A stretch of DNA of 64,000 bases, taken from NCBI GenBank assembly GCA_964404065.1, contig CAYOIP010000001.1:21721-85720 (forward strand), in the 5' to 3' direction. The notes under the pieces were generated by a model, which did not search any database, had not been told where the DNA came from, and saw only the letters and a program-made list of their open reading frames with translations. The DNA is from an uncultured Candidatus Peribacteria bacterium (GTDB lineage: Bacteria > Patescibacteriota > Gracilibacteria > BD1-5 > UBA6164). Of this stretch, positions 514 to 55,373 are shown one piece after another. The number at the start of each line of letters is the position of its first letter. Position 1 is the first letter of the stretch. A program made the position numbers and the translations under genes.

Positions 514-3162
514 TTATTTTTTCAAAACTAATTTATCATTTTCAATACTCAAAAGTACATCATCTCATGATTTTAATTCATCTTTTAATATAAAGTTTGA
601 AAGTTCATTTAAAACTATGTTTGTAATAGCTCTTTTCATAGGACGTGCTCAAAATTCACTATCAAATCAAACTTTTATTAAGTATTCTTTTAATTCTTTT
701 GAAAAATCTATTTTTATATTTTTAGCTTCTAATATTTTACAAACGTCTTTTAGTAATATTTCAACTATTTCTAAAATCATTTCGTGATTTATAGGATTGA
801 AAACTATTATATCATCTATTCTATTTAAAAATTCTGGTCTGAAATAATTCTTTAACTCTCATAACATTTCTTTATTTATTTCATCTTCTGATTTTTTTTC
901 TTCTATGAGAGAAGCAATTTTTTTACTTCAAATATTAGATGTTAAAATAATTATAGCATTTTTAAAATTAACAGTTCTTCATTTACTATCAGTTAATCTA
1001 CCATCATCAAGAACTTGTAAAAGTACATTAAATACATCAGGGTGAGCTTTTTCAACTTCATCAAAGAGAATTACGCTATATGGTTTTCTTCTAACAGCCT
1101 CAGTTAATTGTCCTCATTCTTCATATCAAACATATCCAGGAGGTGCTCCTATAAGTCTTTGAACAGAGAATTTTTCCATATATTCGCTCATATCAATTCT
1201 GATAAAAGCATCTTTAGAATCAAATAAATTTAGAGCTAGTGCTTTTGCAGTTTCAGTTTTACCAACTCAAGTAGGACCAAGAAATAAAAAGCTTCAAAGA
1301 GGTTTGTGTTCATCATTTAGTCAAGCTTTTGCTCTTTTAATAGCATTTGCAACTGCAAAAATGGCTTTATCTTGTCATACAACCGATTTTTTCAAATACT
1401 CTTCTAAATGCAATATTTTATCTTTTTCGCTTTGAACAAGTTTTGAAACAGGAATAGATGTCCATTTTGAAATTATTTCTGCAATATCCTCATCAGTTAC
1501 TTTATCTCTTAAATAAGATTTTCCTGAGTTTTTTATTTCTTCAAGTTTATTATCAATTTCAGAAATTTCTTTTTCTAGAGCAGGGATTTCAGAATAACTT
1601 ATTTTAGCTACTTCTTGGTAATTTGCTTCTCTTTCAAAAGTTTTTGCTTTTATTTTTAATTCTTCAATTTTTTCTCTTAACTGCTTTGATGCAACAATTA
1701 AATCTTTTTCTTTTTTCCAAGATATTTCTAAAGATTTATATTCTTCTTTTTTGGAAGCTATTTCGTGAGATAGTTTTTCTAATCCCCCCTCTAACTCCCC
1801 CCTAGCAGGGGGAGGAGGATTTTGGATTTTCCCCTCCTGCAAGGGAGGGGTTAGGGGAGGGGTATTTTCTGACTTCTTCGCCTCCAACTCTATCTCCAAA
1901 TTCCTTATTTTTTTCTCTAAAATATCAAGTTCAACAGGTTTTGAAATAGTTTTTAATTTTACTGAAGATAATGCTTCGTCAATCAGATCAATGGCTTTAT
2001 CAGGAAGTTTTCTATCAGTAATATATTTTATACTTAATTCAACTGCTGAAATTATAGCATTATCAGTTATTTTTATTCAGTGATGAGTTTCGTATTTATC
2101 TTTTATTCATCTAAGTATAGCTAGCGCATCTTCTCTTGAAGGTTCATCAACTAATACTTGTGCAAATCTTCTTTCTAAAGCTGGATCTTTTTCAATATAT
2201 TTTCTATATTCATTTATAGTTGTAGCTCAAATCAAATGCAAAGCTCATCTAGCTAAACTTGGTTTCAAAAGATTTCAAGCATCGGCTTGTCATTCCTGAT
2301 TTCAAGCTCAAACTATAGTATGAATTTCATCAATAAAAAGTATTATATTTCAGTTAGATTTTTCAACTTCTTTGATAACTGCTTTTAGTCTTTCTTCAAA
2401 TTCTCATCTATACTTTGCTCATGCAAGCAAAGCTCACATATCAAGAGTTATAATTCTTTTTCAAAGTAAATTTTCTGGAACTTCACGCTCAACTATTTTT
2501 CTAGCAATTCACTCAATAATTGCTGTTTTTCAAACTCAAGGGTCTCAAACTAAAACTGGATTATTTTTTGTCCTACGAGATAGTATTTGAATAGTACGTC
2601 TAATTTCTTCTTCTCTTCAGATTACTGGATCTATTTTTCCATTTCTTGCTTGCTCCACCAAATCTATTCAATATTTTTTCAGAGCATTTAGTTTATTTTC
2701 TGCGTCATTTGAAGTTACTTTTTCTCAATTTCTAAACTTTTCAATAACTTTTAAAATATCATCATATTTTATATTTAGAGTAGAGAATATGTTTTTTATT
2801 TTTTCGCTTCAAGATTTTAAAATTGCTAAAATAAGATGTTCTTCTGTTATAAATTCGTCTTTGTTTTTTCAAGCAATATTTTCAGCTTCTCTTAAAATGT
2901 CATTTAGAGGGTAAGAAATCCTCAAATCATAATGTCATTCAATTTTTGGGAAATTATCAATTTCTTTTTTAATACTTGATTTTAAAATCATTAAATCGGC
3001 TCCTAAATCAAGAAGTATTTCTTTTACAATGCTATCACTAGATTCAAGCATAGAGTAAAGTAAATGAAAATCAGTGATTTCAGGATTTTTTAAATTATTT
3101 GCAAGATTTTGGGCTTCTGCAATCCTAGAACTTGCATTTATGGTAAATTTTTCGATGTTCAT
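514..3162 (-). CDS. clpB: ClpB disaggregase (AAA+ chaperone), 882 aa, with a repeat-derived insert in the middle domain
   Basis: N-terminus [18 protein letters not shown].... NBD1 Walker A VGDPGVGKTA at ~2521-2550 has three Gly encoded by TGA. NBD2 FLGPTGVGKTE. C-terminus [15 protein letters not shown] then TAA. Standard-code fragments 1375-1899 and 2935-3162 are in the same frame. Confidence 0.95.
1784..1862. repeat. GC-rich palindromic element, double-arm copy A, inside the clpB CDS in frame
   Basis: cccccctctaactcccccctagcagggggagg-aggattttggatttt-cccctcctgcaagggaggggttaggggagggg. Two inverted units, each with its own hairpin. Read in frame as [32 protein letters not shown] (visible in ORF-track entry 1375..1899). 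Confidence 0.9.
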
Positions 3163-7069: not shown

Positions 7070-8494
7070 TTACAATTTATACTCAATTTTTTCTCAAATT
7101 CAAATATTTCCAGAAATTACATTTGATGATTTTATATAATCAAGTTCATCTATTTCTGGAGCATGGCTTTCTGGTATAACGGAAAGTTTATTTTTTGAGA
7201 TTTCGTGAATATATCAAGTTTGAATTTTTCAAACTCTTTGCTCATATTTTTTATCATAAATTTCTTCTAGGATTTCTCTCATTTCATAAACTCTTTGCTC
7301 AATAATTTTGTCATCAACTTTATTACCAAGTTTTGAAGAAGTTGCTAAAGGTTCATCATGATAACCAAAAAGAGAAACACTATCAAATTCATATTTTCTT
7401 GCAAAATTTTTTAGCATTTCAAAATCTTTTTCATCTTCCCCGGGGAACCCAACTATAAAGTTTGTATGAAGAAAAACATTTTTAAAATTTGCTTTTATGA
7501 AATCTAAAACTTTATAAATATGACTTTCATCGTAAAATCTTCACATAAGTTTTAAAACTTTTGGAGAAATATGTTGAAATGGAAGATCAAAATATGGAAT
7601 CATTTTTTTCAGTTTTGCAAGTCTTTCTAGATGAGAAAAAGTCAAGATATCGGGATACATATAGTAAATTCTATATTTAAAATCTCATGGAACTTTATCA
7701 ATTTCTTCAAGTAAATCTACAAGTTTAGATTCTCAGTAGATATCTGTTCAATATCTTGTTAAATCTTGAGCAATAATTTGAATTTCTTTAATTCCAGAAG
7801 AAATCATCGTTTTCACTTCAGTGAGTATATCTTCGATACTTCTTGATTTTTGTCTTCATCTGATGTTTGGAATTATACAAAAAGTACAATTATTATCACA
7901 TCATTCAGATATTTTTAGATATTCATATCCAAAATCAGCATTTAGGTAAGCTCTTACATCATCAGATTGCCAAATAAATGCTTTTGATGAAATATTGTCA
8001 CCTCAGATATTTTTTAAATAGTTTTTTAATTTTTCTGTTTTTAAGCTTATAATATTTTGATTTAGCTTTCTAAATCCCCCAACCTCCGCTACGCTTTGGT
8101 TTTCCCCCTTTACAAAAGGGGGAAGCGAAGTATGAGCAGGGGGATTTTTCATCCAATCAAGATTTTTACTTTCATTATGAGGAATAACAGCATAAAGATT
8201 TTTAAGGCTTGATAAAAATTCGTCATCTTTTACTTCTGTATAACATCACATAACAATAATTTTCTTTCATTTATCGTCATATTCTTTTATAAGATTTTCA
8301 GCTTCTTTTCTAGAACTAGATAAAAATCAGCAAGTATTTATTATCAAATACTCAACTTCTTTTTCGTCTGGATCAGTAAAAAACTCTATATCAACTTCTG
8401 AAGATAAATTAAAAATATTTCAAACCATAAATTCTAAATCAACTAAATTTTTAGAACATCCAAGGTTTATAGTGGAAAAATAAAATGTTTTCAT
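7070..8494 (-). CDS. rimO: ribosomal protein S12 methylthiotransferase RimO (radical SAM) with a repeat-derived insert
   Basis: MKTFYFSTINLGCSKNLVDLEFM; NTCGF; radical-SAM ISEGCDNNCTFCIIP; C-terminal TRAM-like end. Fragment 7229-7417 is in the same frame. 474 aa. Confidence 0.85.
8072..8147. repeat. GC-rich nested palindrome (divergent variant, copy B) inside the rimO CDS in frame
   Basis: aaatccccc...cgctt..ttttcccccttt-ac-aaaagggggaa-gcg...gggggattt. Outer 9-bp and inner 10-bp inverted repeats. Translated as NPPAHTSLPPFVKGENQSVAEVGGF. Confidence 0.8.
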
Positions 8495-13841: not shown

Positions 13842-13879
13842 CCCCTCTACCTCAAGGGAGAGGGGTTAGGGGTGAGGGC
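13842..13879. repeat. GC-rich palindromic element, single-unit copy C
   Basis: cccctctacctcaagggagaggggttaggggtgagggc. Its terminal ...GGGCTATAT supplies the TAG stop of the upstream gene. Flanked by TTAAATT on both sides. Confidence 0.85.
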
Positions 13880-14615: not shown

Positions 14616-14686
14616 CCCCCCACCTAGCATCCCCCTGGCAGGGGAGGAATTTTCCCCTCTTGCTAGGGAGGGGTTAGGGGAGGGGC
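14616..14686. repeat. GC-rich palindromic element, double-arm copy D
   Basis: ccccccacctagcatccccctggcaggggagg-aatttt-cccctcttgctagggaggggttaggggaggggc. It supplies the TAG stop of the PrgI-like gene. Confidence 0.9.
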
Positions 14687-15883: not shown

Positions 15884-16117
15884 ATGACTTTATTAACTGA
15901 AGAACAAAGAAAAAAATTAAGTGAATCTTGAATAAGAGCTCCTTATGTGAATGAAAATTGCATTGGTTGTAGTGCTTGCGTGGCTATATGTCCGGATGTA
16001 TTTGATTTAAGTGATGAAACTTATAGAGCTTATGTAAAAGAATTAGAAAATTATGATAATTCATGTATAAATGATGCAATATCAGCTTGTCCAGTAAATG
16101 CAATTTCTTGGAAATAA
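15884..16117 (+). CDS. small 4Fe-4S ferredoxin
   Basis: 77 aa; NCIGCSACVAICP ... SACPVNAI cysteine pattern. Confidence 0.8.
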
Positions 16118-16200
16118 AACAATTAAATGTCAATATAATTTCTTGGCAAATGAGTTTAAAATATGATAGACTATATAAAAGTTTATCATTTTTTTATTTT

Positions 16201-19200
16201 ATGGCAGAAATACAAAAACAAAATGAGTGATTAAAAGAACAAAAATCACCTAAAGAACAAACACAAACAAATTTGAATTATATGCTATCAGAGCTAAAAA
16301 AATGAACTCCAACAAAAGAAAAAAGAGATCATATGGTTAATTATGTTATAAAATTAGCAGAAATAGAAAGTAAATACGAGTGAGAAAAAGAAAATATAAA
16401 AAAGGATGTAAGATTTTTTATAGAATCATCTCTTTGAAATAGACTATATAGTCATTTATGAGAATACAATATTAAAAAGTTTGATGTTGATTGAAATGGT
16501 GAAATAGATTCAGAAGAAGAAAAAAATTACTCACAAGCAATGACTGAAGCTATATCACAAATAATAATAATGTTATGAGTAAATAATTTCTCTCAAACTC
16601 ACTATGAATCAGCATCAAAAGAGTGAATAACAAATGTAGATAAAAAATTGGCAAATATAGTTAATTTATGAAAACACTTTTTATGAGAAAAGGGTGAAAA
16701 AAATTTTTCAGAAGCATTATATCAAAGAGAATTAAGTATAAAAGAAGAAGAACTAAAACAAATAAAAGAAAGAAAATTTGATATAACATCAAAAGAAAGT
16801 AGATGAGATTTAGCGTTATTATTGTTTAAAGAATTTTGAGATTGAGTAGAAGATATTTTAAGGTTTCTTTGAAATATTCCTGCATGAATTATTTTACTTC
16901 CAAGATATTTAACATATAGAACTCTAACAAGCGAGGATAATTTAAATATACAAAGTAAAACAGATGCACAAATAAAATTAAATGAATTAGTAAAAGAAAA
17001 TCCATCTCTTTGACTCATAGAACTATTATGAGAAAAATGAGTAGAAATGATAAAGAAATTAGCAGAAATGTTTACCAGCTGAAAACAATGAGACATTGCA
17101 ATGCTAGTAGTTACAATAGCATGACTTTTAGCAGGGTGAGCTTGAGCAGCAAAATTATGACTAAATCTTTCAAGGAAATCAGCTGTAAATTCAGCAAGAT
17201 TAGCTTGAAGAGAAGCAAGAATTGCCTGAGAAACTACTTCAAGAACAACTAGACAGTGACTGAAAAAATGAGCACAAAAAACCTGAAAGTTTGCTGAAGT
17301 TACTGGAAGAGTTGATGATATAGTTTGAGGAGCTTGAATTGGTCATATGACGGGGCAATTTGGATGAAGTGCTGAAAAGATAAAGAATATTCAAGAGTCA
17401 GCAAATGATTCACATTATCATTCTAACTTTTCAACAGAAATTCCAGAAAGTTTAAGACAGCAAAATCCACTTGCTTGGATAGATAAATCATGAGAAATTC
17501 ACTATAATCAAACATCTTTAGAAGAAAAATTTGGTATAAAAATTACCACAGAAAACGGAAAAACTCTTTTTGACTGAAAAACTTTAAAAGACCATAAACA
17601 AGCTCAAGAAATACTTGATTATTTAAAGGAGTTAAAAGCTCACGAAGTTACTCATAGAATACTGGAAGCTAGAGGAATAACTGAAATAAAAGTTTGAGAT
17701 AAAATATATTCTCAAGAAGATATTTGTAGTATAGTTGATTGAAGTAGAAAAATAGAAAAATCAGAACTTGAAGCACTTGAAAAAGCACTCAAAGAAAAAC
17801 TTTGAGATGATTTTAGACTCTTAAAAAATTGAGAGTTAGATGCTGATTTTTTAAGAAGATATGATACAAAGATGGTAGCTGGGTGAGAAGATGTGAGGAG
17901 GAAAAGTGAGGCTGCGAAGGTAAGTTATAGGTTGGAGCAAATTCCAAAAAATACTGAAACTTTACTTACTTATGAATGAAAGGAAATTACAATATTTTTG
18001 TGAAATAATCAAATGATTCAGGTAATTAAAACATCTGATTTACCAAAAGATATAAGAGATAATTATAGAACTCCTTATTTAATTATTCAACCTGATTTAT
18101 TTTCTCAATCAAAACAAGAAAAGTGATTTAAATGATTAAGACAATGAGAACCAGTTTTAATTTGAAGAAATAATGAAAGATTCCAATTTTGAAATGATGT
18201 TTCGAAAAATCATGTTTATATAGCTTTAGAATGAGATACAATAAAATTATTTGATGATAGTACAAATGGTACTTTTGTTAATAAAGATATTTGAACATGA
18301 ATTTGAAAAAAGGAATCTCCATTAAAAGGCGAAAAAGTTGTTGAAGCAAATAATATTCAAAGAAATCAAGAAGTTTTAGCTGTTTGAGATTTACATGGGA
18401 ATATTGAAGCACTATGGGGAAATCTAAATTCTTTATGAGTTATTGATAAAAATAAAAATTGGATAGGTTGAGATAGAAAATTAGTATTTCAATGAGATAT
18501 ACTTGCAGATAGAAATACTCAATGACTTCAAATATTACAAGAAATAGAAAGACTAAAACTTCAAGCAAAAAACGCTTGATGAGATATTACAATTATTGCT
18601 GGAAATCATGATGATATTGCTGTTTCATTTTTATTATGAAAATGAGTTGCTTGAAGCAATTGAAGATGAAACTATAAAGATTTTAGAGATTGATGAGTTG
18701 ATCAAGCATTATGAATGCAAGAGTTTAGAAGATTTATAAATTCAAATTGAGATTTAAATGCGAGAGAAATTTTAGCAAATATGAGAAAATCTCCAGAATG
18801 AATGAAAATATTAGAAAGCATTTGTAGTATGAAACTTGTTGAACAAATTGATGATACTTTGTTTGTTCATACAGATATTACAAATGATATGGCAGAGGCT
18901 ATTTGAAACCTAGGAGTTAATAGAATAAATTCAATTTATCAACATTGATTAAGAAAGGTTCTTTTAGAATGATGAGAAGTAAGAAATTTAGATAATTCTT
19001 TTCATCAATTAGTAGATATATTTTTGAATACAGATAATAGAAAATATATGTCAAATAATCGTGGAGAATTTTTAAAATCAAAGGGTATTAATACTGTTAT
19101 TCATGGTCATACTGATCATAAATGAGCTGATGCACCAGTTATTGGATGAGTTTTAGTGAAATCAGTAGATAATAGTTATGGTAAAAATCCTAAATATGTA

Positions 19201-20613
19201 GATAATCCATCAATTTGAATTATTCGTAAGGATGGAAATATACAGGTTTGAGCTGAAAAGTTATCTATAAATTGAGGAAAACATGGAGATTATTTGGAAG
19301 TTAAAAAATGATTAACTCAAGAAATGTTAGATTCTATAGATTTTTCTAAAGTATTAAATGAATTAGATTCTATAATAAATTCTTGAATAGATACAATAAA
19401 AATAAATTTAGAAAAATTAAAACAAATATATAATAGTTTTAAAGAAGTTTTAATATATTGAAAATATGTTTTTCTTGATTTATTAAAGTGAAATAAAGCA
19501 GAGGATTTATGAATAAAATTAGAAAAATTATCAAATCCTAGATTATCTATTCAAGAAAGAAAAGATATAATTATGTCATTACCAAGAGAAACTCCTGAGC
19601 AAAAAGCTTTTATTCGTTTAGAAATTCAAAGAACGAGAGAAATGATAGATGTTTGAAGGTGAATTACTTTAGATTTAATAGAATCAATTACAAAAGCCAT
19701 TAAACATTGTGAAAGTAATTGACTTGCTTTTAAAGATATTGATAAAACTCCATATCATTGAATAATTAGTGAATATATTAATTATCTTCCCGAAGATATG
19801 AAAATGAAATTTGTTGAAAGATATTATTCATTAATATGAGATTTATCAAGACAAGATATACTTTCACATTTTTCAAAAGATGAATTATTAGATAGGTTTT
19901 TCTGAATGAAAGCAAATTGAAAATTTGATGTTGAAGTTTCTTGATTATCAGTAAATTTTAAATTTGATAATATTGAAGATTATGTATCAGCTTTTTGAAA
20001 AGAAGAATGACGTAAGTCTGCTTGATTTCAAGTAAGAAAAAAGTGATCATGAAATGCAATAGCTTTAAAAGAACATGATGAAGATACTTTTTTACATGAG
20101 TCACAACATGTTAGAAATGATAAAATTTCTCCATTATCTTTATGAAAACAAAATCGTTGACTATGAGAAAATGAAAAATGAACATTGCAAGCATCCAATT
20201 TTAATAACATAGAACAAGTAGTTAAAGAAATTTTTTGAGAAAAATTAAAATGATTATTGAATATAAATGCTAAAGATGAAATAATTGCATGGTTTGCATG
20301 AAATCCATATAATCCAAATATTAATTGGATTAAAGAAGTTATGTTAATGAAATGAAAAGAAAGTCCTTATGATTACAGTTTAATGTTAAGAGCTGAAATT
20401 TGACAAATATTATCACATAATCCACAATTACAATGAATAGCAGGAGGTTATATTTGAGAATATATGGAAAAATATGATAAAATTATTATAAATATGATTG
20501 ATGTTGTTTGTGATGCCCCAAATCCTAGAAGACTTGATGAACTTATGATAACTCCATTTCAAGAATGGTATAAATTTATGCCATGACTTACAAAAGCTGA
20601 TTTTGCTATTTAA
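16201..20613 (+). CDS. 1470-aa multidomain protein: EF-hand loop, TM/Gly-Ala segment, FHA domain, PPP-family (calcineurin-like) Ser/Thr phosphatase, long C-terminal extension
   Basis: Every codon was checked and is open under code 25. EF-hand DVDGNGEIDSEE (~16486-16521). FHA LIGRNNERFQFGNDVSKNHVYIALEGDTIKLFDDSTNGTFVN (~18150-18290). Phosphatase motifs GDLHGN, GDILADR, GNHDD, HGHTDH (~18380-19120). An alternative in-frame ATG exists at 16150. Confidence 0.8.
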
Positions 20614-24584: not shown

Positions 24585-24664
24585 CCCCCCACCTAGCCTC
24601 CCTCGCAAGCTGGGGAAGAACTAAAAAACCCCTCCCGGCTTGCGAGAGGGGGTAGGGGAGGGGC
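24585..24664. repeat. GC-rich palindromic element, double-arm copy E, in the nrdA-nrdB spacer
   Basis: ccccccacctagcctccctcgcaagctggggaag-aactaaaaaa-cccctcccggcttgcgagagggggtaggggaggggc. Confidence 0.9.
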
Positions 24665-28867: not shown

Positions 28868-28946
28868 TGGAGCGAGGGACCAGGTTTGAACTGGCACACC
28901 CAAGGGTTGAAGCCTTAGTACACTCACTCTTTTATGTTACCCTCGC
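28868..28946 (-). tRNA. tRNA-Gly with anticodon UCA (reads UGA), CCA encoded
   Basis: GCGAGGG-TA-ACAT-AAAAGAGTGA-GTGT-A-CTAAGG-CT[TCA]AC-CCTTGG-GTGT-GCCAG-TTCAAAC-CTGGT-CCCTCGC-T-CCA. Cloverleaf with a 7-bp acceptor, a short variable loop, and the Gly identity set G1:C72, C2:G71, G3:C70, U73. Confidence 0.85.
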
Positions 28947-35085: not shown

Positions 35086-35694
35086 ATGCCAGAAAGTTTA
35101 AAAAAATTGATTAATCTTATAGGTTTTTTACCTTGAGTTGGAGAAAAGTCAGCTACTAAACTTGCATTTTTTTTACTGAATTCAAATAAAAATTATCTAG
35201 AAAATCTTGCAAATTTACTAAATAATTTAAAATCAAGTATAGGAAAGTGTGAAAATTGTGGAAGTTTGGTTGATATGTGAAAAGAACTTTGTGAAATCTG
35301 CACTGATGAAAGTAGAGATAAAAATATAATTTGTGTAGTTGAAGAATATCTTGATAAAATGACAATTGAAAATTCTTGAATTTTTAATTGAACTTATCAT
35401 ATACTTGGATGAGCTATTTCACCGATAAATGGAGTTTTTATTTGAGATTTAAATTTTGAAAAATTATTTAAAAAAATTGCAGAACACGAGTGAGGTTTAG
35501 AGCTAATTATGGCTACAAACCCAAATATTGAATGAGAAGCAACGGTTCAATATATTTTATGAGAATTAGAAAAAAGATGACTTAAAAAATTTGTAAAAAT
35601 TACAAGACTTTCTAGATGACTTTCTAGTTGATATATAGAATATGCTGATAATATTACACTTATAAATTCTATAAAAGAAAGAAAAGAAATTTAA
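35086..35694 (+). CDS. recR: recombination protein RecR
   Basis: LPGVGEKSATKLAFFLL (HhH), zinc finger CENCGSLVDMGKELCEIC, Toprim ICVVEEYLDKMTIE. 202 aa. Confidence 0.9.
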
Positions 35695-35728
35695 CCCCCA
35701 CCTAACCTCCCCCTTATCAAGGGGAGGG
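35695..35728. repeat. GC-rich palindromic element, single-unit copy F, starting 1 nt after the recR stop
   Basis: cccccacctaacctcccccttatcaaggggaggg; hairpin CCTCCCC-ttatcaa-GGGGAGG. Confidence 0.85.
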
Positions 35729-39420: not shown

Positions 39421-41232
39421 TTATTTTTCTAATACTGCTTTTATTCTTCTAACTCATCTAGAACTGGCTTCTTCTTTTAAAATCTTAAATTTTCACATAA
39501 TTCCAGTATTTTCTACATGTGGTCATCCACAAAGTTCTCTTGAAAATATTTCTCAAGAAGGAGATTTAAATGTATAAACTTTTACGATATCAGGATATTT
39601 TTCCCAAAAACTTCATTCTACTCAGTTTTCTTTTGCAACATTTTTATCCATTTCTTCTAAAACAACTTCAGCTTGTGCTGAAATAGCTTGGTTTACATAA
39701 TCTTCTACTTCTTTCAATTGTTCAGGTGTAACTTTATCTTCATTTGTGAAATCAAATCTAAGTCTTTCAGCAGTTATATTTGATCCAGCTTGATGAACAT
39801 GATTTCATAGGACTTTTCTAAGTCATGCCAACATTAAGTGAGTAGCTGAGTGAAGAGCTGTTGTAGTTTCTGAGTGATCAGCTAATCCTCAAGCAAATTT
39901 TTGAGCAGCTCAAGCGCGTGATAATTCTTGATGTTTTTTAAAAGCTTCATTGAATCAATCAACATCAACTTTTAGTCATTTTTCTAAAGCTAACTCCTGA
40001 GTCATCTCAATTGGGAAACCAAAAGTTTGAAATAAATCAAAAGCTTCTTTTCAAGAAATTTCTGATTTATTCCCCTCTCCTTGCAGGAGAGGGGCTAGGG
40101 GTGAGGTTTTTTTATCAAACTCTCTCAATCATTTTTCTAATGTAGTTAAAAATTGTTTTTCTTCTCTATCAATCTCTTCTAAAATTATAGACTTTCTATC
40201 AAGTACATTTGTATAAATTGGTGAAAATTTTTCTATTACTTTGCTTGCAACTGGAGATAAAAATTGTCACTGAAATCCTAGTTTATATCATTGTCTGATA
40301 GCACGTCTTAAAAGTCTTCTTAAAATATATCATTGATCTACATTTGATGGAGTTACAGAGTCAGAAATCATTATAACAGAAGTTCTTAAGTGGTCTGCTA
40401 TTATTCTTACAGAATTTTTTGTATTTTCGTTATATTCAATATTTAAAGTTTTACATATAACTTCAATAATATCTGAAAAAATATCAGTTTCATAAACACT
40501 TGGAGCTCAAGTTAAAGTTCTTGTAATTCTTTCAAGTCACATTCATGTATCTACGTTTTGCATTGCTGCTTTATTAAAATTTTCATTTTCATCTTTAACA
40601 TATTCCATAAATACATTATTCCAGATTTCCATCCAGTTTTTATCATCATTTCAAACTGTGCTTTCTTTTGGTGGAAGTTCTTCTTTTCATACCCGATAAA
40701 ATATTTCAGTATCTGGTCAGCAAGGTCCTGTTGCTCCAGCTGGTCCCCACCAATTATCTTTTTTTCAAAGATAACTTATATTTGTAATTCCTAAACTTCT
40801 CCAAACATCAGCAGAAAAATCATCTTTTGGAGCATTCAAGTCTCACTCAAAAACTGTTACAGCTATTTTTTTAGGGTCAATTGCTAGCCAATCTTTTGAA
40901 GTTAAAAATTCATAAGACCATTTTATAGAATCTTCCTTGAAATAATCTCAAAGCGACCAATTTCCAAGCATTTCAAAAAATGTTAAGTGAGTATTATCTC
41001 AAACATCTTCTATATCTCAAGTTCTTATACATTTTTGATAATCAGCTAACCTTTTTCCAAGAGGGTGTTTTTCTCATAACAAATATGGAACCAAAGGTTG
41101 CATTCCGGCAGTATTAAATAAAACAGTTGGATCATTTTCAGGAACTACTGAAGCAGAAGGGATGATAGAATGATTTTTTGATAAGAAAAAATCAATATAT
41201 TTTTGTCTAATTTCATGACTTGTAATTTGCAT
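39421..41232 (-). CDS. alaS: alanine--tRNA ligase, short form (603 aa) with a repeat-derived insert
   Basis: The N-terminal two thirds was translated line by line. [27 protein letters not shown] (Trp=TGG and Gly=TGA in one motif), GPCGPDTEIFY, editing-domain HSATHLM and CGGPHV. Confidence 0.95.
40072..40106. repeat. GC-rich palindromic element, single-unit copy G, inside the alaS CDS in frame
   Basis: cccctctccttgcaggagaggggctaggggtgagg (24 of 35 nt are G/C by count). Translated as [12 protein letters not shown]. Confidence 0.9.
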
Positions 41233-43938: not shown

Positions 43939-45999
43939 ATGTCAGAACAAGAAAAAAAAGAGCAAACTTTAACTCAAGAAACTCAAATTAGGCAAGAATA
44001 TACTGAAGATGATTTAAGAGTTCTTCTTGTTGATTTATGAATGCTAGAAGAAAATTTATTTTCAAATAAAGATTGAATAGTTGATGGAAATAGTGGTGAT
44101 AGTGAAATAGATAAAAAATATAAAGAATGATTAAAGAAAGCAAAAGATATTAAAACAAAAATAGAATTAGTTCAAAGACTTTATTGAGAATTTAGTAGAG
44201 ATAGTTATATAAAAACAACTATTTCATCTCATTTAGATTCAAAAAAAGATTATTTAGATGATGAAGATAGGGATAATATATATAAAATTCAAGAAGAAAC
44301 ACAAAAGATATTAAATGATTATCCAGAATATAAAGAAGTTATAGTTAATCATATAGAATCTAATTTTGATAAATTAAATTATATTGTTTCTAATTACCAA
44401 AAAAATTGAATTGATAAAAAAATCATATCTAATTATTTAAAGATAGATTATAAATTAACTTTAAATGAATGATTTAATAGATTGAGAATAATATTAGAAC
44501 ACATAAATAAGTCAGAAAAAATCATTGATAAAAAAAACATTGTAGATAATTTTCTAAATATAACAAAAAGTGTTTCAGTTGATTTTAGTTGAATGTCTGA
44601 AATAGAAAAAAATAATGACCCATATTGACTTAAAAAATTAGATAAAATATATAATTTTGATTTTACAAATAAGTCACAAGAATTAGATATATATAATTTA
44701 TTAAAAATTTGAATTAAAGATTTAGAATATATAAACAAACTTTACAAAGAAAATAATAAACAAGAATTAATAAGTTTTATAGATAATTTAGAAAATAAAA
44801 ATGATTTGTTAAAAATTGAAAGTATCAAAAAAATTTATTTAGAAGAAAGAAAAAATGAATATGATATAAAAGATTTAGATTTTTGAAGATTAGATGATGT
44901 TTTATTAAAAATAGAAAAAATAAAAGATTTAAAAACAAAAGAAAAAATTATTAATTTACTTAAGGAGTTCAAAAATGGGGGAATTAATGTAGGAAATAAA
45001 GAACAAAAAGAAAAAGAATTAAATGAAATATTTTCTTCTGCATTAAAAGACATTTCTAAAAATATAAATGATGATGATAAAATAAATGACAATCATTATG
45101 AATTAAGTATTCTACACTCTATTGCAATAACTTTTTCAACAGATTTTACTCTTGAGCAAATAGAAAAATTACAAGAAAATATTTGAAAAAATGTAAATAT
45201 AAGATTATTAAAACTAGAAGAAAAATTAAGTAATCCAAATGATTTATATAGGTATAAAAAATGATTGGCATCTTTAAGAGAAAATGACAATTCACCAGAA
45301 AACACTCAGTTAAAATTAGATTATTATAATAGTTTTTCTTTATGAAAAAATACTTATTCTCAAGGTATAAGATGAAAAGCTGAAGAAGAAAAAAAACAAC
45401 CAAAAATTACTGAATCAAAAAAAGCACAAATTCAATATCATTACCAAAAACTTTGATTAAAAGTTCAAGTTTGAAATAATTGAGAAATATTATGAAAATA
45501 TTGAGAGAAAAGTTTTTCTCAAAAACTTCAAGGTTGAAAAATAGAAGTTTGAGCCGATGAGAAAATGATTTACACAACATCACTTTGATACAAATTTGAA
45601 TTTGAGAATAGTGAATTTTGAGCTATGAAAGTAGTTGAAATAACTCAAAGATTTGATTATTTAAACAAAATCTGACTTGGATATTTTGGTGAAAATTTCA
45701 AGAAAATGATGGATTGTATTCCAAGTTTTCTTCCTAATCAAGCATTAAGATTAAATATAGACGAAAAGACTTGAGATTTTTTAGATCAAGTTGAATTAGG
45801 TAAAATTTTAGAAATATTTATAAATATTTGATTTCTTGAAAATATAAATTTTAGTCAAAATATATCAAATATTCAGGAGGTTACTGATGGACAGATGATG
45901 TATAGAGTTTGAAATCTAGAAAATTGAAGTGCATTTATTGATTGAAAATTTGATATAAAATTATTTTGAGAATTATTACAAGAAAAAAATAAAGTCTAA
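43939..45999 (+). CDS. hypothetical K/E/N-rich protein (686 aa)
   Basis: Every codon was checked and is open under code 25. Starts 9 nt after the upstream stop. Confidence 0.6.
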
Positions 46000-46018
46000 A
46001 ATTTAGACTTTATTTGTT
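45988..46018. terminator. hairpin at convergent gene ends
   Basis: aaagtctaaa-a-tttagacttt. It overlaps both stop codons (45997-45999 on + and 45996-45998 on -). Confidence 0.5.
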
Positions 46019-46940
46019 TAAGTAATTTAAATAATTTATATAAAAATTTATTATTTATCCAAATATAACTATCACTTACTTTTTTTATATCTGGAGTAAA
46101 TTTTAGTTTAAAATCAGTTACTCAAGCAAGTGGTGAATTTTTATCTTCAGGGCTTGCTATTCATAAAAAATCATAATACTTAGATCAAATTTCTTTGGCT
46201 TTCTTTATAGCGTACCATTGCATACTATACGGAGCCATTAAGTTTCTAAATTCTTTTAGAGAAGTAGAAGCTCAATAATAATAAATAGAAATTTCTTTAT
46301 TAAAAATAAATATTCAAGCAGAAAGTATTTTGTCTCAAATTTTTGTAAAAATAAGAGAACTTTCAGGGATAATTTCTAAAAAATTTTTATAATATTCTAA
46401 ACTATTTCAAGAAAATCAGTCTCTTGAAGTTGTTTCTAAAATTAGCGAGTAAAATATTTTTATATTTTCTAGAGTTTTTTCTACTTCAAAAACTTCAACT
46501 CATTTTTTAGTTGCAAGTCAGATATTATATCTTCACTTTGGTTTCATTTCTGATAAAATTTCTTCTTCAGATTTTTTTAAATCAATAAGAGCTGTATAGG
46601 GAGTAATGAATTTTTTATAGTGTCAAGGTTTTAGCCCCCCCTCTAACTCCCCCCTAGCAGGGGGAGAAATAGGACTTTCCTCCCCTGCCAGGGGGAGGTT
46701 AGGTGGGGGGATTTTAAAACTCTCAACTTGCACAAATAAACAACTTTGCAATTTACAAAGTTTAATTAATTCCTCAAAATTAACTTTTTCTAAATCTTCT
46801 ATTCATAAAGCAAAAAGTCAGTATTTTCAAAATCAAATACTTCTTTTTTCTACTAATATTTCATCAACCTCAAAAACATCACTTGCTTGATGTGATTTTA
46901 ATAGTAATTTTTTCCAATTATTTGATTGCCAAATAGACAT
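45996..46940 (-). CDS. FemAB-family peptidoglycan bridge-forming aminoacyl transferase (FemX/MurM-like) with a repeat-derived insert
   Basis: 314 aa. MSIWQSNNWKKLL, MKPKGRYNIGLATKKGVEV, GVTDFKLKFTP. Insert [30 protein letters not shown]. Confidence 0.7.
46635..46710. repeat. GC-rich palindromic element, double-arm copy H, inside the FemAB-like CDS in frame
   Basis: ccccccctctaactcccccctagcagggggag-aaataggactttcc-tcccctgccagggggaggttaggtgggggg. The left arm shares 31 identical nt with copy A. Confidence 0.9.
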
Positions 46941-46944
46941 AGTT

Positions 46945-47955
46945 TTAGTTTTTATGTAAATGTTTAATTGCATTCTCTGTGATTTTTCTTCCACGAGATG
47001 ATTTTTCTATAAATCAGATTTGAAGTAAATATGGTTCAACCACATCTTCAAGAGTTGCTTCTTCTTCTCAAATACTTGATGCGAGTGTTCCAAGTCCTAC
47101 AGGACCTCACGAAAATTTTAAATTTATTGTATCAAGATATTTTTTATCTAAATAATCAAGTCCAATCTCATCAATTCATAAATCTATAAAAATTTCTTTC
47201 CAAGTTTTTTGCTCATTTATATTGTGCCCTATAATTTTATAATCTCTAATAATTTTTAAAAGTCTATTTGAAATACGAGGAGTTCATCTACTTCTAGATG
47301 AAATTGCTTCAATTAAATCTTTTTGCATTTCTAGTTCTAGTATTGATGCATTTCTTACAAGAATTTTTGATAAATCACTTCCTGAATAAAAATCAAGTTT
47401 TAGAACATTTCCAAACCTATCTCTTAGAGGGCTAGATAATGCACTGAGTTTTGTAGTAGCTCATATTAAAGTAAAAGATTGAACTGGCATTCTAACACTT
47501 TGCGCTCAAGTTCATTTTCAAACAACAATATCTATAACAAAATCTTCCATTGCAGTATAAAGTATTTCTTCAATTTGTGGTTTTAAACGGTGAATTTCAT
47601 CTATAAAAAGTATGTCTCAGGCTTCAATATTTGATAATATACTAACAAGATCTGCTTGTTTTTCTATAGCAGGACCAGATGTGATCTTTAAATTGCTTCA
47701 CATCTCGCTTGCTATGATGTTTGATAAAGTAGTTTTTCATAGTCCCGGAGGTCAGTAAAAAAGAATATGCTCTAAAGCTGCATTTCTGAGTTTTGCTGAA
47801 GCGATTGAAACTCAAAGATGTTTTTTTATTTGTTCTTGTCCAACATATTCTCAAAGTGTTTTTGGTCTAAGAGAATTTTCATTTAGATCAATATCTTTTA
47901 CAGTAGTTTCAATAACTCTATCGGGTTTTTTAGTTTTTGATGAACTTAATGCCAT
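46945..47955 (-). CDS. ruvB: Holliday junction helicase RuvB
   Basis: [49 protein letters not shown]. 336 aa. Confidence 0.95.
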
Positions 47956-47979: not shown

Positions 47980-48070
47980 CCCTCACCCCAACCCTCTCCT
48001 TTGAAGGAGAGGGAGTAGAAGGATTTTTTATCCCCCTCTACCCTCAAGGGAGAGGGGCTAGGGGTGAGGG
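47980..48070. repeat. GC-rich palindromic element, double-arm copy I
   Basis: ccctcaccccaaccctctcctttgaaggagaggg-agtagaaggattttttat-ccccctctaccctcaagggagaggggctaggggtgaggg. The right arm lies inside the 3' end of the methyltransferase CDS. Confidence 0.9.
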
Positions 48071-48616
48071 TTTTACTATCATAACTATTCCATCTTCAAT
48101 ATCAATAGGAATAATATTGTATGCAATTTTATTATCTTCTAAATACTCCCAAAATCAAATCATTTTTTCTCTAAATTTTATTACGTCATCTATAATTACA
48201 ATACCTCAAGGTAATACTTTATCCCAAACTAATTCTAAAAAATCTTTAGTTCTTCTTTTCATTCCATCAATAAATACAAAATCAAAAGTTTCATTTAAAG
48301 CTGGAATTATATCTAAAGCATTTCAATTTATAGCATTTATTGCATTTTCTACTCAAGCAGTTTTGAAATTTTCCAGCGCTTCTATATAAGATAATTTTGA
48401 AAACTCTATTGTTGTTAGTTTTCCTCAAATTTCTTTTAACTCTAAAGCAAAATTTATTGCACTATATCAATTTGCAGTTCATATTTCAAGCATATTTTTA
48501 GTTTTTGAGACTTTAATTAAATCTCTTAAAAATCTAGCATTTACTTCTGAAATATTTGGAATTTCGTTTTGTAATCAGTGTTTTTTTAGTTCTTTTAGAA
48601 ATACATCAACATTCAT
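48038..48616 (-). CDS. class I SAM-dependent O-methyltransferase (family-3-like) with a repeat-encoded C-terminal tail
   Basis: LEIGTANGYSAINFA, FDFVFIDGMK, GGIVIIDDV. Ends ...IVMIVKPSPLAPLPGG-TAG, with the last ~10 codons and the stop inside repeat copy I. Confidence 0.7.
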
Positions 48617-48695
48617 TTTTTTGGCTTTAATATTTAATATAATAAAATATAAAAATAAAAAATTATAAGTCAAGAATTAAATTTTCTAGAAAAAC

Positions 48696-49293: not shown

Positions 49294-52200
49294 ATGAAAA
49301 CAAAAACAAATATTTTTAAATTAATTACATTGTTATATTTTTTTATAATAATGCTTTTTTCATGAAAATCATATGCTGACTTAACTGCATCAGATTGAAT
49401 AACAGCATCAACTTCTTGAGTAAAATATACTTATTATGAAGTTACTTGGTGCAGTCCTCATTATACTGAAATTACTTCATTAACTCAAATTTGTGAAAAA
49501 TGATATTTTTATAATAATGGTTGAGTTTGAGTAATGACATATAAGTGAGAAAATTTTAAAAATTGAAATGTAAAAGTTAAAACTTGACTTCCATGAGTTA
49601 CTAGAACATCAAGTGTTTGACTTTTAGATTTGTTTGATGTATCAAGTATAAAATTTGAATGAGAATGAACATATACTATAAATGTTTTACTTGTTGATTA
49701 TGCCTATAATGCTTCAAAATTTGATTTTACATATAAAATAGACAAAACAGCTCCACAATTTCAATTAACTTCAATTACTGAAAATACCCCTTATACTTAT
49801 GTTGATACTTCTTTACCAAGACTTAGTTGATTAAATTGAAATATTGTTAAATATGATAGTAATACAAATATTTCAAATGATCCAGATAAATATACAAATC
49901 CATGACTTGTTTTTACTGATAATACATATACTTGAGATATTCCAGTCGAAAGAACATGACATCAAAGACAAAATTTGTATGTTTTTTACTTCAAAGATGT
50001 AAATTCTTGAGATTGAGCTTGAAAACCTTTTAATTTAAATGTTACATATAGTGATAACTATAACTCATATTTAAAGTGATGAACAACTTTGGTTTCTTGA
50101 GTAGATAAACCTTTTGCACTTATGCCTGAAACTTGAAATATCCCAATAAAATCAAATATATCATTATGAACAGTTGCTTGATTAGTTACTTCGGATCTTA
50201 CTTCAAATAGTGATATAAATTCTCAAAAAAAATATAGACTAAGACTTTATGATAATTCGACTTGAAAAAATTGATGAGATTCAAATTTTTCTGAAATTAC
50301 ATTTTATGCTGTTAGGGACAATACAGCACCTAATATGTGATGAAATGGTTTAGCTTCAACAAGTAATGAAGCTTCGCAAAGAGCTTTAAAATTTGATTCT
50401 TCTACTACTGTTTGGGATACTTGAGCAACTCCATCAAATTCTGAAACTTCATGAGCTGTTTCAAAGTTTATTTCTGCCACATCCTCAAAAACTCTATATT
50501 CTACACTTTCAGATATTTGAATATGATGAAGTGATTCTACAAAATATTCTTGGTATAATGCTTGAATTCCACTTTCTGGAACTACAAAAATCCAAATAGA
50601 AACAAGTGGTGATAAAACAAGTTATAGCGATGTATTTTCATATAGTAATAGATTTATTAATACAGATGTAACAAGAAATAAAGATTTTTCAATAGTTGAT
50701 TTAGATAGACAAAATTGATATAGAAAATATACTGCAAAATTTGTAACAACTTGAATAACTTGAGATAATAATTTATGTGATAATGTATGAAACTGTTTAA
50801 GTCCAAAAATTGATTTTAGAGTTGTTGCAAATGCTATAGCTACGACTACTTCAAATATATCTTTAGCTTCTCCTGTGAAAGTTTTTGCAAACTGAACTGA
50901 TAAATATACTATAACTTCAAATTTTGAAGATACTTACTGAAATAAAATAGTTTGAGTAACAGCCGTAGAAAATTGAAATAAAATTATAAAAACAGTTGAT
51001 ACATATTTTGACTTTGAAAATTGACTATATTCTGATCAAAAATCAGATACTCCATCTTGAACAAAATTAGCAATAATAAATGATGCGCAAATTGATAATT
51101 CAACATCTACAACTTCAACAATAAATTCTTCTTCAAATATATATTTCAAAGAAATTGCTGAATCTTGAGCAAATACAAATGCATGAGTTTATAGTTTTTA
51201 TGTAGCATCAAAAGTCCCAACTAGTTGATTATATCCATATTTATCTAATAATACGAAAATTAAATTAACATCTATCAGACCAAGAGCTATTGAATGAACT
51301 ATATCATGAGTTTGAATTTATCCAACTTCTATATCATGACTTTGACTTTTTTCTTGAAATGTAAATTTATGAAATGCAACAAATTTCTTAACTTATGATA
51401 AGGCTTGAATTGATAATTGAACAACAACAACTGATTTAAGTAGTTTTAATTCAGCTAATTATTGAAAAATTACTTTAAGTAATGCAAATGATGTGAAATA
51501 TAATACTTTATCTTTAAGAAAGTTAGAGCTTGAGTTTGCTTCACCATTTGTTTATGGAATGGAAAACTTCAGTTTATCACCACTTTATAGTTTTAACGCA
51601 TATGCTTCACATACAAAAAAATTATATGAATTATCAACTTGAGTAGGGTTCAATAAAATATTCGAACAATTTTTATCAGCATATGGATCTGATAAACATA
51701 CTTCTTGAGTAGTAAATTTTGATTATAAGAATTCTAGTATTTGAAATGTAAATAATTGATATTCTTTTGCTTGAAATTACTATAGAGATAATATGTTATT
51801 GGCAAATTGATTAGAATTTGAAGTTAAATCATCACCAGCTTTATCAAGTTATGATTCTAATAATGAATTAAAATACTGATATGTTTCATATTTAGCATAT
51901 GATTTATGATGATATACTATATATATTCCTTCAGTTTCAAGAAATGTATCAAATTTATTAACATGATGAAATAATTCTAAATTATCATCTAGATTTTATT
52001 TTCCAGATTGAAATACTCCTTATGTAATTATATGAGATTGAGTTACAAATTTATGAGTTTGACCAAATTTATCTATAGCCGTAACTGGGCTAACAAATAG
52101 AAATATGCAAATGACTGATGATACTACTTGATCAAAAGCATCAGTTAATATTTGAGAGAATGTTTCAAGATATGATTTAATAACAACATTTAAGAAAAAT

Positions 52201-53106
52201 GTTTCTTCGTTAAGTTCTTGATTATGAGGAACTAGTTGAGTTGATTGGTGTGAAAATCTATGAATAATAAATCAAAATTTTATAAATAATGGAGATAATA
52301 AAAATTGTACTATTGATATAAATTGAGAAAAAGTTTCTTTTATAAAATGAAGTGTAAATATTGATTGTTGATCTAATAATTGTGTATTACCAAATAATGT
52401 TAAAAGAACTATTATTGTTCAAGATGGTTATACTTATATAAAATCAAATATCTCAACATACAATAAAAGTTCTCAATTACTTATTTGAACTTTATCTCAA
52501 GCTGGATTGCAAAATATTGATATACCGGATGATTTAAGTTTTGACATAACAACACAACCAAAAACTAAATGATGGACTTTTATTGATTCGAAAGTTACAA
52601 ATATTGATGCATTTATAGTATCTCAGTGACCAATGGTTACTTATGATCAAACAAAAACTAAACTTTATTGAAATACTATTGAAGCCAATGAATTGAGAAA
52701 CCAATTACAAATTTATGGTTCTGTATTATCTCTAAATACTATTTGAGGATTTAAAGATGTTTGACTTAACTTCGAATGTCCTTACATAATAGATAATTGT
52801 ACTTCAAATGAATCAGCAATATTTGATTTAGTATTTTTAAGAAGATATAATTTAATTTGAAAAAAGTTTTATGATGATACTTATACTTGAACTGAGGTTG
52901 CAGCTTATCATCCAAATTGATATGATATTGCTAAAAGATCTTGATGAAAAACTTGATACTTTAATTTAACAGATAGTGAATCTTGTTGAACTCCGGATTC
53001 AGATTTAAGATGTATTACTGATTCAGATTACAAAAAATATCCACTTTTCATACAAAGAGATACTATGTGGAATTCTTCGCCAAGTATAATGTTTAGTGTT
53101 GATTAG
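49294..53106 (+). CDS. large secreted S/T/N-rich surface protein (1270 aa), unknown family
   Basis: All 1270 codons were checked; no TAA/TAG. Signal peptide MKTKTNIFKLITLLYFFIIMLFSGKSYA. No cytoplasmic-type motifs. Confidence 0.7.
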
Positions 53107-53129
53107 GAAAAACTTTTTACTTTAAAATA

Positions 53130-53168
53130 AAAATAGCTAAAATTAAGTATAAATTTTAGCTATTTTTT
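53130..53168 (+). terminator. intrinsic terminator
   Basis: aaatagctaaaat-taagtataa-attttagctattt followed by T-run. Confidence 0.65.
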
Positions 53169-53174
53169 GATATT

Positions 53175-55328: not shown

Positions 55329-55373
55329 GTTATATAATATATAATTTCATTGTTTATTTTTTAATATAAAATT

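Follow-up and report, generated by a model that had tools for sequence, protein, structure and literature searches.

How does a GC-rich palindrome come to lie in frame within the gene for a chaperone in an AT-rich bacterium, and does it become part of the protein? The question is raised by clpB in a 64,000-nucleotide stretch of DNA from an uncultured Candidatus Peribacteria bacterium (contig CAYOIP010000001.1, positions 21,721 to 85,720). This whole stretch is called the window here, and all coordinates refer to it unless another locus is named. At 1784–1862, in the part of clpB that encodes the middle domain (M-domain), two GC-rich arms, CCCCCCTCTAACTCCCCCCTAGCAGGGGGAGGAGG and CCCCTCCTGCAAGGGAGGGGTTAGGGGAGGGG, flank an AT spacer and form an imperfect palindrome, just as the initial annotation of the window described. 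The reading that we favor, with a probability of roughly 0.8, is that a repeat of the BoxC/triplex type overwrote the turn of M-domain motif 1 in an ancestor, and that the repeat is translated as a flexible Pro/Gly loop that the chaperone tolerates. Genetic code 25, the BoxC/triplex-motif class of the repeat, and the replacement of host sequence were all missed in the initial annotation.

The host gene, clpB, occupies bp 514–3162 on the minus strand and encodes 882 residues under genetic code 25. Only under this code is the gene one uninterrupted open reading frame (ORF), as it includes 35 in-frame UGA codons read as Gly. With the standard code or table 11, the minus strand around the element offers only a 174-residue ORF. 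Code 25 was adopted for the window because UGA falls on conserved Gly positions; the Gly of the Walker A motif GPT-G-VGKT in the second nucleotide-binding domain (NBD2) is encoded by UGA. Close ClpB homologs all come from Candidatus Gracilibacteria, and on this sequence evidence the source organism is a Gracilibacterium that uses code 25. The best database match, P0001, differs from the code-25 translation at 35 positions, all G to W, which indicates that P0001 is the identical gene translated with code 4. More generally, public protein databases carry code-4 versions of the window genes, with W at UGA, and apparent identities are lowered by about 4%.

Read with code 25, the protein has two Walker A and two Walker B motifs, and the ILFDEVEKA motif is visible. 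Thus, the earlier statement that the gene is otherwise intact, with all its Walker motifs, holds once the code is changed. The domain layout is that of a class 1 AAA+ disaggregase of the ClpB type, i.e., an N-domain, two AAA+ modules with Walker motifs, and an M-domain in AAA-1. The Pfam domains of the ClpB homologs include Clp_N, AAA, AAA_lid_9, AAA_2, and ClpB_D2-small, and the M-domain of the window protein can be aligned to those of 1qvr and 4d2q. Between the window gene and the clpB of locus L125, which carries the insert as well, the synonymous divergence, dS, is 0.59 and the ratio of nonsynonymous to synonymous divergence, dN/dS, is 0.094. As both genes are carriers, clpB has therefore been under strong purifying selection while carrying the insert. 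If the standard code is applied, clpB looks shattered by 35 "stops", as a decaying pseudogene would, and a chimeric assembly might likewise account for a foreign segment. Such an explanation can be dismissed almost entirely: the code-25 ORF is intact with UGA at conserved Gly positions, dN/dS is near 0.09, and the insert is not an assembly artifact, since an assembly made independently from a different run has the same insert (P0003, encoded at L125; Logan run SRR28335222).

The foreign block is slightly longer than the palindrome. It extends over 84 nt, from 1783 to 1866 on the minus strand, and supplies the in-frame residues N433–G460 (28 residues) of ClpB. Each arm is built as a triplex-motif unit. 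The left arm (1784–1814, minus strand) reads CTCCCCCT-GCTA-GGGGGGAG-TTA-GAGGGGGG, that is, a C-stem, a loop, a G-stem, a 3-nt loop, and a mirror-repeat tail. The right arm (1831–1861, plus strand) reads CCCCTCCT-GCAA-GGGAGGGG-TTA-GGGGAGGG. In both arms the stems pair with at most one mismatch, CTCCCCCT with GGGGGGAG across the GCTA loop and CCCCTCCT with GGGAGGGG across GCAA, and GGGGGGAG-TTA-GAGGGGGG and GGGAGGGG-TTA-GGGGAGGG are perfect mirror repeats. The AT-rich spacer between the arms (1815–1830, GGATTTTGGATTTT on the plus strand) forms the apex of a long hairpin, as judged from the sequence and from computed folds. Considering Watson-Crick pairing only, the element folds at −48 kcal/mol in the mRNA sense (z-score −2.7) and at −59.5 kcal/mol on the plus strand (z-score −4.0).

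The double-arm copies are free of stops in two of the six frames, and in clpB the open frame is one of these. The minus-strand frame reads exactly the ClpB peptide quoted in the initial annotation, with neither a stop nor a frameshift. Might the segment nevertheless be missing from the protein, through intron-like removal from the mRNA or through ribosomal bypass of the kind found in T4 gene 60 and in yeast mitochondrial "byp" elements? A very stable GC-rich hairpin set in AT-rich coding sequence invites the idea, and we take the clpB element to resemble GC-cluster-derived bypass elements. The idea is nonetheless highly improbable. All the coding copies examined are in frame and stop-free, and the lone indel seen within the element is one of 3 nt, whereas a skipped segment would be under no such constraint. 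No stop lies in frame, and none follows a take-off codon. In Rfam, no intron family or other family matches the element at the gathering threshold; a permissive scan returned only sub-threshold matches to the precursor hairpins of animal and plant microRNAs, i.e., generic hairpins. An intein is ruled out because 28 residues are far too few.

What stood at this site before the repeat? The closest ClpB orthologs, of 860 residues, read EAKKVE(G)NKKEDLEKL and have no insert. In a DNA alignment, the 84 GC-rich nt of the window stand opposite 18 nt, TGAAA(C/T)AAAAAAGAAGA(T/C), in loci L001, L127, and L004. Thus, the block takes the place of an 18-nt loop-coding segment, TGAAACAAAAAAGAAGAT, which specifies the six residues GNKKED, and adds a net 66 nt (22 residues). 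An insert of about 30 residues was claimed initially; the Pro/Gly-rich block of 28 residues bears this out, but the claim misses that six residues were lost in exchange, so that the event is a replacement rather than a simple insertion. Repeat-free relatives had been proposed as the place to look for a homologous segment, and L001, L127, and L004 have none at the site. The 84-nt block lacks the flanking target-site duplication that would be expected of a miniature inverted-repeat transposable element (MITE) or other transposon. Because host sequence was replaced and no target-site duplication is seen, we infer that the repeat came in as a patch rather than by transposition.

Within the M-domain, an alignment to the E. 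coli and Thermus thermophilus proteins puts the start of the insert immediately behind the counterpart of E. coli E432. It takes the place of the turn equivalent to S433–R440 (KDPDSQE in T. thermophilus), which is the tip of M-domain motif 1. An AlphaFold2 model, computed with the code-4 protein P0001 as query and an alignment of 49 sequences, has a helix at residues 410–431, no regular structure at 432–454, and a second helix at 455–511, with predicted local distance difference test (pLDDT) values below 50 over 434–457. The flanks are thus M-domain helices, as had been proposed, and the suggested structural model does place the extra residues in an unstructured segment that loops out between them. 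As the modeled loop falls between intact helices, the insert would lengthen an existing helix-helix turn and interrupt no helix. The initial annotation was correct to place the segment in the coiled-coil M-domain; by calling it helix-breaking it overstated the damage, since what is extended is a turn that already varies among orthologs. The proposal that the insert lies in the DnaK-docking part has to be given up: the site is the motif-1 turn after the E432 equivalent, and it is the motif-2 tip that DnaK binds (Carroni et al. 2014, PMC4023160). The motif-1 tip instead makes a repressing head-to-tail contact with the neighboring motif 2. The E432A change gives a repressed ClpB, and deletion of motif 1 gives a hyperactive and toxic ClpB that is still active (Carroni et al. 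2014, PMC4023160). On positional grounds, then, the insert may plausibly affect regulation.

The clpB element is one member of a dispersed family, as the initial annotation held. A detector for the hairpin and mirror-tail geometry finds 12 arms in the 64-kb window and none in any of 20 shuffled sequences. The sequence GGGGAGGGG occurs three times in the window and not at all in the shuffles, so the triplex motif is both multi-copy and over-represented. The common design begins with a C-rich stem, a short loop, and a G-rich stem complementary to the first; a loop of 3 nt (TTA or CTA) and a mirror tail rich in G complete it. The members are GC-rich islands, conspicuous in a window of 24.4% GC. 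Over 31 nt, the left arm of the clpB element has exactly the sequence of the arm at 46635–46667 and of an arm in an rsmA gene on the metagenome contig L128, the one contig matched when metagenomes were scanned with these 31 nt.

By its architecture the clpB element is a G/C-rich class II intrastrand triplex motif, of the type variously called BoxC, TM_ECO, and HPG1. The published TM_ECO motif, also known as BoxC, is CCCTCNCCC-N3-6-GGGNGAGGG-N3-GGGNGAGGG, in which the hairpin loop measures 3–6 nt (9 at most) and the second loop roughly 3 nt (Holder et al. 2015, PMC4666352). The units of the window share this order of C-stem, 3–6 nt loop, G-stem, 3-nt loop (TTA or CTA), and mirror G-segment. Their core, GGGAGAGGGG-TTA-GGGGTGAGGG, is in some copies near-identical to the E. 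coli GGGAGAGGG-TTA-GGGTGAGGG. In both settings the repeat is multi-copy, occurs as single units and as inverted pairs, varies strongly in copy number between close relatives, and is tied to local sequence replacement and instability. E. coli K-12 has 23 TM_ECO copies, five in inverted pairs and all of them intergenic in MG1655. The motif was found 3610 times in 262 proteobacterial genomes, related G/C-rich motifs are abundant in cyanobacteria, and TM_ECO is linked to local rearrangement (PMC4666352). A published report describes element loads that differ sharply among Enterobacter and E. coli strains. HPG1, the "G-quadruplex-Hairpin-Duplex switch", was likewise found in intergenic regions only (Kaplan et al. 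2016, PMC5100583). Differences are apparent as well. First, the clpB copy is in frame within a gene, as are the copies in alaS and in the L128 rsmA, and so these depart from the intergenic location that marks the E. coli family. Second, the host is a Candidate Phyla Radiation (CPR) bacterium with 24% GC and code 25, whereas the published surveys concern Proteobacteria and Cyanobacteria. Third, a comparison of coordinates shows that the tails of a pair point outward in the window and inward in E. coli. A literature search returned no paper on these motifs in Gracilibacteria or inside coding sequences. In one preprint, Gracilibacteria are listed with the phyla whose inverted-repeat density is highest.

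The repeat had been expected to be a lineage-specific family. This expectation was overturned when the 20-mer of the right-arm tail, GGGAGGGGYTAGGGGAGGGG, was sought in one genome per species and matched at least 120 loci (L005–L124) in unrelated phyla. The matches listed include Sphingomonas, Planctomycetota, Chloroflexota, Acetobacteraceae, Omnitrophota, other CPR bacteria, and more; among them, the matching upstream hairpin is nearly always present, and some are double arms of the window type. The host genomes range from 36% to 71% GC, and several matches are at the ends of contigs, where repeats that interrupt assembly would be expected. The spread of GGGAGGGGYTAGGGGAGGGG reaches far beyond the Proteobacteria and Cyanobacteria of the published surveys.

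Two other kinds of repeat, and one kind of protein variation, invite comparison. The Rickettsia palindromic elements (RPEs) insert in frame into many genes (Ogata et al. 2000, 2002, as summarized in a review, PMC10969869). Like the window repeats, RPEs are palindromes that lie in frame in a range of unrelated housekeeping genes, in a bacterium that is small, AT-rich, and dependent on a host; they are read as an additional peptide segment at positions that suit the fold, and only some orthologs have them. RPEs are about 100–150 bp long, belong to other sequence families, of the Rickettsia lineage, and are not of the GC-rich triplex type. The units here are arms of 30–37 nt or pairs of about 80 nt that often replace codons, and the same sites are struck repeatedly. 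The clpB element is thus set apart from RPEs by size, composition, and host, and no relationship in sequence is expected. Its behavior is RPE-like in that a palindromic repeat lies in frame in genes, with some orthologs having it and others not. REP/BIME repeats with their RAYT transposases, and MITEs, are likewise short dispersed hairpin repeats, and a conserved tetranucleotide stands by the hairpin in both cases, YTAG here and GTAG in E. coli REPs. By definition, REPs lie outside genes, unlike the clpB copy, and the clpB junction shows neither a target-site duplication nor the terminal inverted repeats of known insertion sequences. No RAYT or other transposase was identified among four window ORFs scanned against Pfam, the window not having been searched systematically. 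Lastly, loop insertions in the M-domains of ClpB and Hsp104 resemble the present case in that the motif-1 turn varies in length and sequence among orthologs. They differ in that the extra residues here come from a dispersed DNA repeat of foreign composition that is present at other loci.

How often has the clpB site been struck? P0003 (L125) has the same 84-nt block less one Pro codon, an in-frame deletion of 3 nt that is its only difference from the window element. In a neighbor-joining tree, the window protein, P0003, and P0013 form one clade, and because they do, the simplest reading of the sequences is that their insert goes back to a single ancestral event. P0013 has an upstream flank of 31 nt identical to that of the other carriers and, at the site itself, a double-arm element quite unlike theirs, whose left arm nearly matches an arm in the NBD2 insert of its own gene. 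Other lineages carry different arms at the same M-domain position, all in frame (L002; P0012 and P0014 from L003; P0025 from L126), and further ClpB orthologs probably have remnants of arms there. Among Gracilibacteria ClpBs, the motif-1 turn varies in sequence and length, and several lineages have other Pro/Gly inserts. A second ClpB hotspot lies in NBD2, after the TSNIGSKKI segment (alignment columns ~733–739). It is empty in the window and filled by different GC-rich arms in L002 (4039–4190 of that locus, +135 nt), L004 (7040–7130, +69 nt), and P0003 (about +63 nt). Separately, L001 (20 kb) and L127 (4.3 kb), with clpB genes about 87% identical to that of the window at the nucleotide level, have no arms in the sequence fetched, and close lineages thus seem to carry sharply different element loads (none in the 20 kb of L001, 12 arms in the 64 kb of the window).

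The window's alaS tells a similar story. A single arm at 40072–40106 (plus strand) is in frame within 39421–41232 (minus strand) and is read as 11 residues, inside the Pfam tRNA-synt_2c match (residues 7–449). The orthologs are equal in length, at 603–606 residues, and have a conserved stretch of about 18 residues, LVGGFQIAFERTGQKVDT, where the window has the arm. For these two reasons the arm is taken to have replaced host sequence: about 54 nt were exchanged for about 51 nt, and the alignment shows no net change in protein length. Different Pro/Gly arms occupy the same spot of alanyl-tRNA synthetase (AlaRS) in P0150, P0151, and P0159, from three other Gracilibacteria lineages. Gracilibacteria AlaRSs are all short, at about 604 residues. 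The alignments indicate that the ClpB and AlaRS sites have each been struck independently in several lineages. In every coding copy examined the frame is kept: clpB changed by +66 nt, L003 by +36, L004 by +69, L002 by +135, and alaS by −3. The database proteins among these were ascertained as intact ORFs; the window's own copies are free of such ascertainment.

Additional genes contain arms. In an ORF of the FemAB family (45996–46994, minus strand), a double arm at 46635–46709 lies near the N-terminus in the open frame and is read as 25 residues. The Pfam FemAB match is downstream of the element and the part upstream of it has no Pfam match; this copy is probably coding. This open frame shares about 50 nt with the end of ruvB, and its true start is uncertain. 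A double arm at 47981–48070 lies between ruvB and an O-methyltransferase gene. The ORF of the latter (48038–48673, minus strand) ends within the right arm (48033–48070) as IVKPSPLAPLPGG followed by the stop codon; that is, the repeat arm supplies the last ten or so codons (PSPLAPLPGG) and the stop. In the related code-25 organism of L128 (metagenome contig Ga0193956_1017431), rsmA/ksgA has two in-frame arms, at 1098–1132 and 1266–1298 of the contig. The arm that matches the clpB arm over 31 nt lies just before the conserved ANIPYYITSPI motif, and the Pfam RrnaAD match spans both arms. A RimO/MiaB-like radical-SAM gene of the window (ORF 7070–8494, minus strand) has a different GC-rich palindrome at 8065–8141, AAATCCCCC...CCCCCTTTACAAAAGGGGG...GGGGGATTT. 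Its in-frame reading, NPPAHTSLPPFVKGENQSVAEVGGF, falls between the domains UPF0004 and Radical_SAM, and the palindrome may be another repeat family or a decayed one. L125 has arms inside a radical-SAM gene too; this gene was considered as an ortholog of the window's and rejected on comparison. As only two of six frames are stop-free, the coding copies appear to be survivors of selection, and it is therefore argued that they are translated.

The comparison of the window with L125 bears on how the clpB copy has been maintained. Over clpB as a whole, 12.7% of the nucleotide positions differ, a mean of 9.7 differences per 81 nt, and the sole 81-nt stretch with no difference consists of the element and its immediate flanks. 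The element, frozen in this way, has arms that are common to several loci; a constraint on the nucleic acid, homogenization by gene conversion, or recent transfer of a patch is therefore to be considered. One may picture an element that is actively maintained or homing-like, in which gene conversion, strain-to-strain patch transfer, or a dedicated enzyme repeatedly overwrites loop segments, the clpB copy being young or refreshed. The identity of the element in the two diverged genes would fit this picture, as would the very different element of P0013, which shares clade and flank with the others and has a left arm nearly matching its own NBD2 arm. Identical 31-nt arms at three loci in two genomes, the persistence of GC-rich DNA in a genome of 24% GC, the replacement rather than duplication of host sequence, and the sharp differences in arm load all point the same way. 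The identical tract, though, reaches only about 19 and 12 nt past the element, within chance, and so has no conversion-tract signature. Nor did the limited Pfam scan turn up a transposase or other candidate enzyme, the window ORFs not having been screened systematically, and the literature finds no association of the motif with mobile elements (PMC4666352). On account of the frozen sequence and the recurrent hotspots, active maintenance is a serious possibility, though less likely than not.

A broader version of the same idea is that the pan-bacterial BoxC/triplex repeats are, in Gracilibacteria, an active "patching" element. Such an element would overwrite short loop-coding segments of essential genes (clpB, alaS, rsmA, and others) at hotspots, and would stay identical in sequence across lineages that, at dS of about 0.6, are past half saturation at synonymous sites. 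We put this forward as a speculation that is more apt to fail than to hold. If it were true, it would call for dedicated mobilization or gene-conversion machinery, or for direct selection on non-B structure in coding regions, and the machinery could be found by comparing gene content, given the sharp contrast in load from one close relative to the next.

Selection for the insert itself is another way to account for a frozen element. The loop or the nucleic-acid structure may have been co-opted, retuning the head-to-tail contact or slowing ribosomes or modulating the mRNA, and been kept for that reason. The start of the block, next to the E432 equivalent, does lie at the tip in contact with the neighboring motif 2, where E432A and deletion of motif 1 alter regulation; the element has no substitutions between lineages at dS 0.59; and the same ClpB site has gained arms at least three times independently. 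Against this, similar arms occur in alaS, rsmA, the radical-SAM gene, the 3′ end of the methyltransferase gene, and intergenic DNA, so that no role specific to ClpB is needed. The peptides at the ClpB site differ widely between lineages, close relatives manage without an insert, and recurrence is explained equally well if the site is one of few permissive turns. An adaptive insert is thus unlikely.

Overwriting by a BoxC/triplex-type repeat, followed by tolerance, remains the reading that we prefer, and the proposed course of events is as follows. A double-arm copy would have entered clpB in an ancestor shared by this genome, P0003, and P0013. It would have overwritten the six-codon turn at the tip of M-domain motif 1, by a recombination- or repair-type patch and not by cut-and-paste transposition. 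Selection would keep only copies that lie in a stop-free frame (two of six), change the length by a multiple of three, and fall at a surface turn. The clpB copy has an open frame, a net gain of 66 nt, and a place at such a turn, and so would be transcribed and translated within ClpB. The product would be a flexible Pro/Gly loop of 28 residues in place of six, lengthening the turn between the two helices. The insert would leave the AAA+ core and motif 2, where DnaK binds, intact, and the chaperone would stay functional; the insert is presumably tolerated because the site is a surface turn. Actual translation, tolerance rather than benefit, and the mechanism of insertion are what we infer; the identity and copy number of the repeat, its restriction to certain lineages, its open frame, the position of the site, purifying selection on clpB, and the recurrence of arms there and in other genes are observed.

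Several points weigh against this account. With regard to the class assignment, the strict TM_ECO expression matches no window copy at 0–1 substitutions, matches 47980–48013 at two, and leaves the clpB arms unmatched; the published family, moreover, is always intergenic in E. coli and has no link to mobile elements. With regard to tolerance, the element comprises 27 codons with about 21.7 synonymous sites. At the observed proportion of synonymous differences in clpB (pS 0.41), about nine synonymous changes are expected, and none is seen. A simple neutral model of tolerated junk would not predict this. As the motif-1 tip makes the head-to-tail contact, the insert may also be other than functionally silent. 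The structural model is of moderate quality (mean pLDDT 68, predicted TM score 0.39), and its query carried 35 G-to-W substitutions, all outside the M-domain. Finally, the case that ribosomes read through the hairpin, at about −48 kcal/mol, is drawn from conservation of the frame and selection on the gene.

The repeat class is already known; what is new is the setting, with housekeeping genes of a CPR bacterium colonized in frame, and the behavior, with hotspots that recur and a nucleotide sequence that is frozen. BoxC/triplex repeats have been familiar for decades and described as strictly intergenic, and here the same architecture is met in a code-reassigned CPR bacterium, with one copy frozen in nucleotide sequence while its host gene diverged. 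The colonization of coding regions would be a second natural example of the behavior of Rickettsia RPEs. Recurrent replacement at permissive turns maps surface loops of ClpB and AlaRS that tolerate 10–30 extra residues, and a natural insertion at the motif-1 tip offers a ready-made test of how far the repressing head-to-tail contact can be perturbed. There is also a practical consequence: arms inflate and distort protein predictions for Gracilibacteria, and low-complexity Pro/Gly segments should not be taken as functional motifs.

The remaining arms of the window lie outside genes or at their ends. A single intergenic arm at 13842–13878 (plus strand) is close to TM_ECO type A of E. coli, with the core GGGAGAGGGG-TTA-GGGGTGAGGG. 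Intergenic double arms are found at 14618–14683, from GC islands, folds, and the geometry detector, and at 24586–24662, where the inner stem differs in sequence with its complementarity kept. A single arm at 35694–35727 (minus strand) adjoins the 3′ end of ORF 35086–35694. The intergenic copies were considered as intrinsic terminators, and this reading was dropped: a consensus scan calls no arm as a terminator, since a G-tail, and not a run of T, follows the hairpin.

A tRNA gene at 28868–28946 (minus strand) has the anticodon UCA. ARAGORN labels it "tRNA-SeC", and it is most likely the tRNA-Gly(UCA) of code 25. Under this code, ORFs antisense to clpB and to other genes appear, such as 1751–2914 (plus strand, 387 residues); long antisense ORFs of this kind are most likely artifacts of an AT-rich genome with one stop codon fewer, and not genes. 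The segments 16063–20613, 49294–57725, and 60472–64000 hold very large ORFs, of 1516, 1270, 717, 783, and more than 1176 residues. Most of these have N-termini resembling signal peptides, and their products are presumably surface or secreted proteins.

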